From the IMG/VR virus record IMGVR_UViG_3300003691_000005, positions 1 to 60,912 of that record: DNA of 60,912 bases, one strand, 5' to 3'. Positions 40,711 to 41,903 of the stretch are shown piece after piece. Every line of letters begins with the position of its first letter. Within the stretch, counting starts at the first letter, position 1. Position numbers and translations under genes: made by a program. This stretch comes from a virus (lineage: Duplodnaviria; Caudoviricetes). The notes beneath the pieces were generated by a model. That model did not search any database. It saw nothing but the letters and a program-made list of their open reading frames with translations, and was not told the origin of the DNA.

Positions 40711-41062
40711 GTATTCAAAATTTAATAAAGCAAATCTAATCGCAGGGATCACTGTTAGGGATGAGATGCTTTTTGATGCGAGTAAAAAAAAGATAGAAAT
40801 GCAGAAGCGTATCGATGAGCTTGAGGCTGAAGTCAAGAGGCTGCAATTTGCAGGACATGCAATTAATATTATCCTGGATGATAGTGACACTCAGAATCCT
40901 AGACGATCACTACCTTATTTCTTACCTGACAGGGAAGTCGGCATTGATAGGGATAATCGGGGCTATATTGTCATTTACGGAAATAAAGATCAGTACGCCT
41001 TAACACCACAACGGTATGAAACTTTTGAATTGGCAGAAGCTTCGATACTGGCCGAGTTATAA
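40703..41062 (+). CDS. Hypothetical protein (RIDELEA)
   Basis: GAGGTGAGTGATG junction; the stop codon forms the TAAC of attC1. Confidence 0.65.
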   Translation: MSKYSKFNKANLIAGITVRDEMLFDASKKKIEMQKRIDELEAEVKRLQFAGHAINIILDDSDTQNPRRSLPYFLPDREVGIDRDNRGYIVIYGNKDQYALTPQRYETFELAEASILAEL

Positions 41063-41138
41063 CCTTTTAAATAAGATGCAAATACAAGCTTTATAGGCGC
41101 AGCCGACTGTATTTGTCATTTTGATTTTGTTGTTAGGC
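41057..41138 (-). other. Integron attC site 1 (82 bp; plus strand is the bottom strand)
   Basis: TTATAAC-6nt-AAT AAGATG CAAATACA ... TGTATTTG [T] CATTTT [G] ATT-5nt-GTTAGGC. Extrahelical T and G are 6 nt apart, as in canonical attC bottom strands. Confidence 0.8.
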
Positions 41139-41333
41139 GGTAACTATTGGAGATAGAGAAATGAAATTAACACCGGAACAAATGTTTGCAGCTATAGAAA
41201 ATTATGCCGCGCAAGAATTAGGTATTGTAGGAACACCAACGATAAATATTATTGCCAACAATGATGTTGAAGCAGGGAGTATCATTGCAATTACTGATGT
41301 TTATGAGGTACGGGTTGAGCTCTAACCGCCTAA
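41063..41333 (-). mobile_element. Integron-type gene cassette 1
   Basis: Core sites GTTAGGCGGT (41132) and ACCGCCTAAC (41325) are perfectly complementary; contains one RBS-bearing ORF. Confidence 0.75.
41161..41325 (+). CDS. Cassette 1 ORF, 54-aa hypothetical protein (not in ORF track)
   Basis: RBS GGAG; MKLTPEQMFAAIENYAAQELGIVGTPTINIIANNDVEAGSIIAITDVYEVRVEL. Confidence 0.65.
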   Translation: MKLTPEQMFAAIENYAAQELGIVGTPTINIIANNDVEAGSIIAITDVYEVRVEL

Positions 41334-41363
41334 CACCCTAATTCAAGGGTAACTTTTAATAAA
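41331..41363 (-). repeat. 33-bp direct repeat copy 1 (attI-like landing site)
   Basis: TAACACCCTAATTCAAGGGTAACTTTTAATAAA; on the minus strand CTTGAAT-TAGGGT-G|TT. Confidence 0.75.
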
Positions 41364-41376
41364 AATAGGTGATCGA

Positions 41377-41601
41377 ATGAGTGAGTATTTAGAATGTATA
41401 GAAGTATCCAGCGTGATGCATTTTGTAGATAACTTTATCAAAGATAAAAAGTATGAAATTACAAATGTTTCTGGAATTAGCGTCATCACAGGCGAGAATG
41501 GCACTCAATACCCCGTGAACATTTCAAACGGGCTAGCCGAAATGGTGAGCGTCGATTTGTCATTTACATGGCAACCAAAGTTTAAATTGGGTTATGCCTG
41601 A
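41377..41601 (+). CDS. Hypothetical protein (74 aa)
   Basis: RBS AGGTG; the stop overlaps the attC2 TGATAAC. Confidence 0.6.
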   Translation: MSEYLECIEVSSVMHFVDNFIKDKKYEITNVSGISVITGENGTQYPVNISNGLAEMVSVDLSFTWQPKFKLGYA

Positions 41602-41658
41602 TAACCTTTACGATAAAAGGCGCAGCTTTACCGCGTCCTTTTGATTGCGTTGTTAACT
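41599..41658 (-). other. Integron attC site 2 (60 bp; plus strand is the bottom strand)
   Basis: TGATAAC-6nt-GAT AAAAGG CGC loop GCG [T] CCTTTT [G] ATT-5nt-GTTAACT. Confidence 0.8.
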
Positions 41659-41873
41659 GTTATTACGGAGTAAATAAAATAAAACATTTAGGATGCGAAT
41701 GTACCTACTGTCCCCTTGCATGCAATGGAACAGTAAACAGGCTGGAATTTGAGGCCGAGGAAGCAGAGGCCGCGCATCTTTGGCTAGACGATCAATGTGT
41801 ATCCCGAACTGACATTGCTACTGGCAACGAGCTATCGCTTGTGGGAAGAATTATGAGATACAAAGACAGTTAA
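41605..41873 (-). mobile_element. Integron-type gene cassette 2
   Basis: Core sites GTTAACTGT (41652) and ACAGTTAAC (41866) are perfectly complementary. Confidence 0.75.
41679..41873 (+). pseudogene. Cassette 2 ORF (64 codons) with ATA in place of a start codon
   Basis: GGAG-8nt-ATA, then IKHLGCECTYCPLAC...ELSLVGRIMRYKDS; the stop lies within the core site. Confidence 0.5.
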
Positions 41874-41903
41874 CACCCTAATTCAAGAGTAACTTTTAAT
41901 AAA
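41871..41903 (-). repeat. 33-bp direct repeat copy 2 (attI-like landing site)
   Basis: TAACACCCTAATTCAAGAGTAACTTTTAATAAA; one mismatch to copy 1. Confidence 0.75.

Follow-up and report, generated by a model that had tools for sequence, protein, structure and literature searches.

Two predicted integron-type cassettes in a complete, integrase-less phage genome and a related attC family in uncultured marine phages

attC-type sites and predicted cassettes in the phage genome

The IMG/VR record IMGVR_UViG_3300003691_000005, which in its full length of 60,912 bp constitutes the window analyzed here, is the genome of a tailed phage that CheckV rates as 100% complete. Within a run of small plus strand genes, several of which belong to a family of coiled-coil paralogs, this genome contains two hairpins with the architecture of integron attC sites in their bottom-strand form, each at the head of a predicted cassette that is flanked downstream by a copy of the same intergenic repeat. 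The features of this element are listed below, with the evidence for each in parentheses (the covariance models R1 and R2 are described in the next section; ORF, open reading frame).

41054..41141, plus strand: attC-type site 1, bottom-strand form (sequence layout, R1 and R2)
41063..41333, plus strand: predicted cassette 1, 271 nt, consisting of the attC hairpin, GTTAGGCGGT, a Shine-Dalgarno sequence, an ORF and ACCGCCTAA (sequence, repeat I13, circle-form fold)
41161..41325, plus strand: cassette ORF X1, 54 aa, an ORFan (ORF call, family and homologue searches)
41334..41368, plus strand: repeat copy 1 (CACCCTAATTCAAGGGTAAC...), flank of cassette 1 (repeat D4)
41596..41661, plus strand: attC-type site 2, bottom-strand form (sequence layout, R1 and R2)
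41605..41873, plus strand: predicted cassette 2, 269 nt, the stop codon (TAA) of its frame forming the 3' end (sequence, repeat I17, circle-form fold)
41679..41873, plus strand: cassette frame X2, about 64 codons (reading frame, alignment with X1)
41874..41908, plus strand: repeat copy 2, flank of cassette 2 (repeat D4)

On the plus strand, both sites share the layout AAC, 6 nt, 3 bp, 6 bp, stem, loop, stem, an extrahelical T, 6 bp, an extrahelical G, 3 bp, 5 nt and GTT. Site 1 reads AAC(41061-63)-CTTTTA-AAT-AAGATG-CAAATACA...TGTATTTG-[T]-CATTTT-[G]-ATT-TTGTT-GTT(41132-34), its extrahelical bases being T 41116 and G 41123, and site 2 reads AAC(41603-05)-CTTTAC-GAT-AAAAGG-CGC...GCG-[T]-CCTTTT-[G]-ATT-GCGTT-GTT(41652-54). 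Both have the R''-L''...L'-R' imperfect inverted repeats with AAC and GTT triplets by which attC sites are defined, together with the unpaired spacer and the extrahelical G, then T, opposite AAC. As they stand in the genome, the hairpins are of unremarkable stability (z from -0.25 to -1.6 in one test and from -1.15 to -1.9 in another). When the cassette ends are joined as in an excised circle, each site gains an R box of 9-10 bp, and the predicted folding energy is -17.4 kcal/mol (z -5.8) for site 1 and -12.6 kcal/mol (z -4.6) for site 2; among the fold forms compared, only this predicted excised-circle form is unusually stable.

The word of 5-6 nt that follows each GTT has its reverse complement about 200 nt further on, immediately before a second AAC. 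In cassette 1, GTTAGGCGGT (41132-41141) pairs perfectly over 10 nt with ACCGCCTAAC (41325-41334), and in cassette 2, GTTAACTGT (41652-41660) pairs perfectly over 9 nt with ACAGTTAAC (41866-41874); the repeat search reports these complements as inverted repeats I13 and I17. In both cassettes, the bases after G|TT are thus complementary to the cassette's own R'', the arrangement of an attC site split between the two ends of an integrated cassette. The initial annotation of this DNA, made from the sequence alone, had described an integrase-less array of two attC cassettes with complementary GTT and AAC cores about 200 bp apart, and the runs of 10 and 9 nt confirm the cores. The cassette limits of the form TAA|C...TAA|C that it proposed, giving units of 271 and 269 nt, fit both the sequence and the breakpoints in the related arrays described below.

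Both cassettes lie directly 3' of a TAA stop codon. The phage genes that precede them are the following.

40700..41062, plus strand: upstream phage gene, 120 aa, of the coiled-coil paralog family (sequence, repeat families D1-D3)
41377..41601, plus strand: phage ORF Y1, 74 aa, between the cassettes (sequence, ORF call)

The 120-aa gene terminates in a TAA (41060-41062) that directly abuts the predicted crossover 41062|41063, and Y1 is followed by TGA and then TAA (41602-04), which ends at the crossover 41604|41605. Y1 has no complementary ends and, by this test, is therefore not a cassette.

In both units, the second AAC is followed by a 38-nt repeat (41331-41368 and 41871-41908, 92% identical), with a unit period of 540-542 nt. 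Its 22-nt core has only two matches in the window with up to three mismatches, against 0 expected from shuffles, and was not found in the viral_contigs collection. Copy 1 runs on into the ribosome-binding site of the gene downstream, and copy 2 is followed by the gene at 41918-42154. The repeat is the source of the G|TT (GTG|TTA on the minus strand), used twice, and no intI gene adjoins it. AA|CAC is all that the repeat has in common with the flanks at the array ends of other phages. The repeat, designated attI-like in the initial annotation, could equally be a true attI-like site, a favoured secondary site, a native spacer that was hit twice or part of a duplicated 541-bp module. Within copy 1, positions 41335-41350 form a 5-bp hairpin (ACCCT...AGGGT) followed by a T run; in copy 2, one pair of this stem is broken.

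The annotation placed one small ORF in each unit. Cassette 1 encodes a normal 54-aa ORF, but for cassette 2 the statement has to be weakened. The X2 frame is open from 41586 to 41873 (95 codons) and lacks an ATG, GTG or TTG close to its head or its ribosome-binding site; an ATA at 41679 is aligned with the ATG of X1, so that the gene may be decayed or employ a non-canonical start. X1 and X2 are unrelated to each other. A search among 5.8 billion proteins for homologues of X1 retrieved only X1 itself, and none of X1, X2 and Y1 had a significant match in PHROGs or Pfam.

No match to the tyrosine recombinase family PF00589 was found anywhere in the 60,912-bp record, in agreement with the annotation, which had noted no such enzyme in the window. 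With two sites 455 nt apart and no PF00589 match, the locus falls under the definition of a cluster of attC sites without an integrase (CALIN), that is, at least two attC sites within 3 kb (PMC9892861). It is not a complete integron with intI, attI and Pc, given that the genome encodes no tyrosine recombinase.

Covariance models and true attC sites

As a reference for true attC sites, we used the class 1 integron carried by the phage P1 isolate MH445380 (cassettes aadA1, aadA2, cmlA1 and psp). The aadA1, aadA2 and psp attCs have, on their coding strand, the layout AAC-5nt-3bp-[C]-6bp-[A]-stem...stem-6bp-3bp-6nt-GTT; the cmlA1 attC has the same layout except that the first extra base is G and the second bulge is shifted. 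It follows that the bottom strand of these sites has the layout seen on the plus strand of the window.

Two covariance models were compared. R1 was built from four phage-type sites, namely the two window sites and two from other contigs; it scores site 1 at 73.0 bits and site 2 at 75.7 bits. R1 recognizes the class 1 attCs on the bottom strand only (33.8, 26.5, 23.7 and 16.6 bits) and also matches five attCs next to a broken intI gene in a chromosomal array of Agaribacter marinus, on the strand opposite the ORFs. R2 was built exclusively from 10 true attCs located beside intI genes (class 1 and A. marinus) and contains no window sequence. When run over the whole window with filters off, R2 matches exactly the two sites, both on the plus strand only (site 2, 49.1 bits, E 5.2e-10; site 1, 43.1 bits, E 1.9e-8), the next best match scoring 12.0 bits. 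The covariance-model check that the annotation had proposed thus gives, with R2 as a surrogate model, significant matches for both sites on one strand. In phage-type and class 1 sites, the R box, the unpaired spacer, the L box and the two extrahelical bases are spaced identically, and the models cross-match both ways, but the phage sites are AT-rich whereas the class 1 attCs are GC-rich, and the orientation of the ORFs is reversed. An Rfam search of the region yielded no attC family match and only chance-level matches (E >= 0.12).

A family of attC sites in uncultured marine phages

A pattern derived from the conserved ends of both sites was scanned over three public collections. It matched 139 loci, of which 45 (metagenome or viral) were taken into the analysis, most of the others looking like chance matches; a stricter hairpin pattern matched nothing in viral_contigs. 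In the retained loci, R1 identifies 110 sites in 50 locus-strands, 28 of which have at least two sites (these counts exclude the duplicate contigs L142, L168, L188 and L061-L063 (= L074, L076, L015), the partial matches L146 and L112 1042-1128, and matches first found with R2). R2 recovers the same sites on the same strands and some further ones.

The expected positions are occupied by AAC in 108 of the 110 sites and by GTT in all 110. Among 93 sites in a model-fitted alignment, 95.3% of the cells are paired; the corresponding figures are 73.3% for shuffles and no more than 57.9% for slid controls. Both sides change at 12 of the 13 hairpin pairs, and the alignment has a covariation score of 0.487, whereas shuffles score 0.112 and slid controls no higher than 0.074. 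Invariant in this alignment are AAC, GTT and the adjacent T-A pair. Layout, reciprocal matching of the models and family-wide covariation agree that the two window hairpins have the attC bottom-strand form and that, as originally read, the plus strand corresponds to the bottom strand. The sites are members of a single large and rather uniform attC family, arrays of which occur in many unrelated marine phages.

Hairpin 1 (41058-41135) is 97-100% identical in 13 metagenome loci, where the homology stops at TTATAAC and, at the opposite end, at GTTA, both flanks being variable. The leader of cassette 1 (GTTAGGCGGTAAC...GGAGA...ATG) and its tail (TAACCGCCTAAC) surround at least three unrelated ORFs (L152, L081 and L196).

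At least 15 array ends in other phages read AA|CAC. At these ends, the last cassette (...TAA|C) is joined to DNA that forms no hairpin and starts with CAC, often CACTG or CACTAAGCACACAAGAA (L015, L106, L199, L072, L091, L187, L203, L155, L181, L081, L121, L112, L196, L189 and L141), and several unrelated contigs have the same flank. This flank possibly represents a favoured target of insertion, or a sequence akin to attI.

The family includes a class of long sites of 133-139 nt, found in L196 (1209-1347 and 2633-2767), L091, L115, L106, L140, L072, L121, L172, L200 and L077. In the long sites of L196, the loop appears to contain a ribosome-binding site and the start of a short ORF, and could be a mini-gene within the variable terminal structure.

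Reversed orientation of the cassette ORFs

In 54 of 55 cassette-size gaps between family sites, the longer ORF lies on the strand that is matched by the bottom-strand models, with a median length of 74 aa compared with 37 aa on the other strand. The start codon is located a median of 31 nt after GTT, and in 34 of the 55 gaps the stop codon is the TAA of TAA|C, as it is in cassette 2 of the window. The ORFs of both window cassettes are likewise on the model-matched strand, whereas canonical cassettes have the ORF upstream of their attC and on its top strand. The control sites behave as expected of canonical arrays: all 10 true attCs match the strand opposite the array genes (annotated genes in L051, ORF calls in L219). 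Under R1 and R2, Pseudoalteromonas phage H101 shows the same reversed arrangement as the window.

According to Nivina et al. (2016; PMC5027507), neither mobile nor chromosomal integrons have been observed to contain cassettes that face the promoter. Phage cassettes of the type described here would face the promoter, unlike the known integron cassettes. A screen restricted to the canonical orientation or to the vicinity of intI would misread the phage arrays.

Cassette ends and exchange across related arrays

The complementarity of cassette ends is a property of the family. The run of complementarity between the GTT tail of a site and the AAC tail of the next site averages 7.9 nt over 59 consecutive pairs, compared with 5.06 nt within the same site and 5.29 nt in random pairs, and reaches at least 7 nt in 45 of the 59. 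Nine consecutive pairs have a run of only 4 nt; the gaps between them are larger (468-1993 nt) and these pairs probably skip something.

Comparison of related arrays gives indirect, family-level evidence of breakpoints at the predicted crossover. L106 and L140 share an ORF of 97% identity and diverge right after ...TATAA|C, where L106 continues with an array-end flank and L140 with a hairpin (hairpin 1). In L133 and L199, hairpin and ORF are 100% identical and the preceding tails differ. In three of seven homologous module pairs the ORF has kept its upstream hairpin, and in none is the downstream hairpin clearly kept (best identity 78%). As judged from these alignments, the pattern of exchange fits a cassette order with the hairpin first and the ORF second.

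Phages and bacteria that carry the arrays

At least seven near-complete phage genomes contain sites of this family. Few or no genes link them to the window phage, and between one another they reach at most about 20 ORF matches. Five array-bearing IMG/VR records are 96-100% complete, two of them with terminal repeats, and PF00589 is absent from all five. Six array-bearing phages were compared with the window phage: five share 1-4 ORFs with it and the sixth shares none, the only recurring gene is that for SSB (three of the six), and no shared recombinase was found. Among the array loci covered by a tblastn search, which include the array of the G001:C2 phage, no IntI1-like protein was detected. 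In BLAST searches, no cultured phage was found with the hairpin or a family array (including a blastn search with the 2-kb L140 array).

The 42-kb contig behind L015 is a phage genome with genes for terminase, portal, major head protein and endolysin, although it was binned in a metagenome-assembled genome of Gammaproteobacteria. Positions 1-50 of L015 presumably are a remnant of a Nextera adapter. An R1 match at the other end of this contig (L063 1935-2026), just after the SSB gene, suggests that the L015 array wraps around the assembly break.

In the chromosomal integron of Agaribacter marinus, the 3' arm of an attC contains the conserved words of the phage family, GTTTGATTTTGTTGTTA (L219 3692-3804), and these sites hint at hosts among the Alteromonadales. 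Two integron integrase genes were observed in this bacterium, one split or broken and lying next to the canonical array (L219, contig 1, 96500-104112) and the other full-length but with one in-frame TGA and situated at a contig end (G003:C15:31839-32780). Far from both intI loci, contig 2 contains four R2 sites in a row (L043 4711-7025, plus strand), and ORFs on the same strand end in the TAAC of these sites (e.g., 6703-6963); this run is a phage-type integrase-less array within the bacterial genome, perhaps in a prophage.

Proposed mechanism and alternative explanations

The analyses above establish the attC identity of the sites, the strand assignment, the cassette limits and the absence of an integrase from the phage genome, as well as the family with its reversed orientation. 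The two integron-type cassettes form a CALIN in a complete phage genome, and we consider it probable that they are moved by an integron integrase. In this scheme, the single-stranded plus strand would fold at the site into a hairpin, which IntI would recognize by the boxes R and L together with both extrahelical bases (G and T). Nivina et al. (2016; PMC5027507) place cleavage between A and C of AAC, and the extrahelical bases of the bottom strand on the arm opposite AAC (G16 and T23 in attCaadA7). The cut in the window would fall between A and C of 5'-AAC-3', at 41062|41063 and 41604|41605, and the cut end would be joined to another attC or to a double-stranded G|TT site. Both insertions would have occurred right after the TAA of a phage gene and before copies of the same 38-nt intergenic sequence. 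The minus strand target, GTG|TTA, would fit the 5'-GWT-3' rule for insertion of cassettes by IntI at genomic positions outside att sites, as described in a preprint (bioRxiv 10.1101/2022.09.11.507474). Because the phage encodes no integrase and cannot supply one, the enzyme would come from the host; we infer that it is a host IntI and that the sites are still active. Since the cassettes are co-oriented with the phage genes, they would be readable from phage transcripts.

Several observations weigh against this interpretation. The predicted folding of the plus strand is no better than that of the minus strand, a point in which the window sites differ from the attCs of mobile integrons, for which an average strand skew in folding is reported. 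The two covariance models are not fully independent, because the R2 alignment was laid out by the R1 structure, so that its columns, although not its letters, depend on the window. The location of the ORFs on the bottom strand is not predicted by the canonical integron logic. The upstream hairpin also differs in four of the seven pairs of homologous ORF modules, which implies exchange at the GTT side as well; to judge from these sequences, such exchange would go beyond what bottom-strand IntI recombination alone could yield and would be explained by homologous recombination. The window phage itself encodes a RecT-family protein and a YqaJ-type exonuclease. A search with R1 of 151 genomes from the order of Agaribacter gave two matches with E <= 1e-4, in a weakly sensitive scan that scored 34 candidates per genome, and megablast and blastn searches with 40700-42200 gave no match in cultured phages.

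Some of these points lead to an alternative that we regard as unlikely, namely that the hairpins, although derived from attC, now serve mainly a regulatory function as weak terminators or RNA stabilizers, and that the ORFs are shuffled by homologous recombination through the phage RecT and exonuclease. Such shuffling would be in keeping with the presence of both enzymes, with the conservation of the hairpin and the leader up to the start codon around unrelated ORFs, with the near identity of hairpin 1 in 13 loci between variable flanks and with the fact that both neighboring hairpins differ in four of the seven homologous modules; it would bring to mind the promoter/stem-loop modules of T4-type phages. 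A regulatory role is in line with the location of the sites after stop codons and their T-rich 3' arm, and PMC9892861 describes attC sites as presumed weak terminators. As terminators, however, the window hairpins are poor candidates: they are AT-rich and bulged with large loops, lack the features of rho-independent terminators, and neither is called on the plus strand in a terminator scan, whose only calls near the sites are 41635-41621 on the minus strand and the small hairpin 41335-41350 of repeat copy 1. With 9 terminator-like sites against 8.8 expected, the region shows no enrichment. Homology-driven shuffling also leaves unexplained the complementary tails of consecutive sites, the near invariance of AAC and GTT at their expected positions and the maintenance of the integrase-binding geometry of both bulges through compensatory change. 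The two processes are not mutually exclusive.

An explanation that we consider quite improbable keeps the folded single strand as the substrate and replaces IntI with another enzyme: the host XerC/D, which act in this manner on CTX phage, an HUH-type nuclease or an unrecognized phage protein. PF00589 is missing from all six phage records, IntI1-like proteins were not detected in the loci covered by tblastn, a scan of one genome per species did not find the family as a large chromosomal array, and the reversed ORFs suggest a system distinct from the bacterial integrons. A common phage enzyme is nevertheless not visible, given that the array-bearing phages share almost no genes; the geometry with extrahelical G and T is specific to IntI, with R2 scores of 43-49 bits, and sites of the same shape in H101, possibly including the two H101 sites tested with IntI1, score 29-49 bits. 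Finally, the region might be viewed as a chance resemblance, made up of two ordinary intergenic hairpins or terminators and a local tandem duplication of about 541 bp, as the unit period of 540-542 nt and the unremarkable in-place stability could indicate. This view is effectively refuted by the R2 E-values of 5e-10 and 2e-8 from a model devoid of window sequence, by the 93 related sites with covariation and by the unrelated ORFs of the two units, X1 being without any relative.

Relation to known systems

The location of attC clusters in phages is not new, and in this respect the initial annotation, which regarded a phage-borne array as a departure from the usual carriers of integrons, overstated the novelty. 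Qi et al. (2023, Front Microbiol; PMC9892861) report 17 CALINs in phage genomes and show that IntI1 recombines five of six attC sites tested from virulent phages, two of the six coming from the CALIN of phage H101. With both phage CALINs and their recombination by IntI1 published in 2023, the phage-borne element by itself is no novelty. A full-text literature search found no further papers on phage attC arrays, the orientation of the ORFs not being a specific target of that search. To this background the present analysis adds a well-supported further example of a phage CALIN, its place in a widespread attC family that is almost uniform across uncultured marine phages, the occurrence of single cassettes at TAA|CAC sites that are not att sites, and the consistently reversed orientation of the ORFs. 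Taken alone, the window is a more modest but solid further instance of an element class that was first published in 2023.

The nearest CALIN is that of Pseudoalteromonas phage H101/PH101 (NC_029094) which, like the window, has at least two attC sites, no integrase and small ORFs of unknown function. R2 finds four sites in H101 (48.9, 43.7, 41.3 and 28.6 bits), all on the gene-carrying strand as in the window. The two loci differ in that the window has two single cassettes, each next to a copy of the 38-nt repeat, in place of one contiguous array, and in that the attC type of the window is 97-100% identical in many uncultured marine contigs and in no cultured phage. In the relevant main-text passages of PMC9892861, the H101 arrangement is called 'typical' and the reversed orientation is unmentioned; the supplementary lists of attC strands for the 17 phage CALINs, which belong to the same paper, may already record it.

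Among bacterial systems, the array of Agaribacter marinus NBRC 110023 (L219) has the same attC architecture, with uniform attCs, unrelated small ORFs and complementary ends, but its ORFs are opposite the bottom strand, each before its attC, whereas the phage family has bottom-strand ORFs that follow their attC. The phages also lack the platform of intI, attI and Pc, unlike sedentary chromosomal integrons. The use of the AA|C crossover as the ORF's own TAA end (34 of 55 gaps, and cassette 2) likewise separates the phage cassettes from those of class 1. The insertion at attG sites described by Loot et al. (bioRxiv 10.1101/2022.09.11.507474) similarly involves a bare G|TT outside the integron platform; that study concerned Escherichia coli chromosomes and IntI1-3, whereas the window presents a phage target, the same 38-nt context twice and an enzyme that is inferred.

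A different resemblance is that to the PeSLs of T4-type phages, which reportedly are 'mobile regulatory cassettes' with a terminator and an early promoter that recombine by homology. These repeated stem-loops are said to flank small novel ORFs in the plastic early regions of lytic phages and presumably drive modular shuffling. In contrast to PeSLs, sites of the window type have attC geometry, invariant AAC and GTT and complementary ends, and promoter-like sites are not enriched in the region (16 sigma-70 promoter-like sites found against 21.7 expected).

Integron cassettes are generally viewed as a bacterial toolkit, and many chromosomal cassettes carry anti-phage defences; the window region suggests that cassettes travel toward phages too. 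We tentatively propose, as a possibility that is somewhat doubtful at present, that marine phages maintain a pool of 'inverted' cassettes of their own, which are traded during infection between unrelated lytic phages via the integron integrase of the host. An inverted cassette of this kind would consist of attC, a ribosome-binding site and one bottom-strand ORF, with TAA as the crossover in most of them (34 of 55 gaps); its gene would be on the 'wrong' strand for a bacterial integron and on the right strand for phage transcription. If the host integrase does move these cassettes, the phages would be using a stress-induced recombinase of the host to renew their early genes. The turnover of early phage genes, possibly of anti-defence genes, would then be driven in general by integron recombination, whose role would extend beyond bacterial adaptation, and the cassette ORFs would amount to a catalogue of candidate genes for host takeover or counter-defence.

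Genomic surroundings

Searches for relatives of the region yielded little. The large terminase of the window phage has a best identity of about 43%, to Vibrio and other phages. A tblastn search with two proteins encoded nearby found no relatives, and no related loci were found via the neighboring 120-aa and 130-aa proteins. SSB retrieved 80 related loci, at most 71% identical (best segment), none of them syntenic around the cassettes. The window has a GC content of about 45%, contains no tRNA genes in its 60,912 bp and encodes an SU10-type portal in addition to SSB.

The segment 40276-42612, in which the cassettes are located, contains a family of small paralogous coiled-coil genes that share six copies of a repeated DNA motif encoding the RI(D/K)ELEAE type of sequence. 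These paralogs commonly have overlapping stop/start junctions of the form GAGGTGAGTGATGAGT, and a degenerate copy of such a junction (41291-41319, 79% identical) is present at the 3' end of X1. The structural half of the genome contains two very long ORFs, 18887-25876 (2329 aa) and 26232-30920 (1562 aa).

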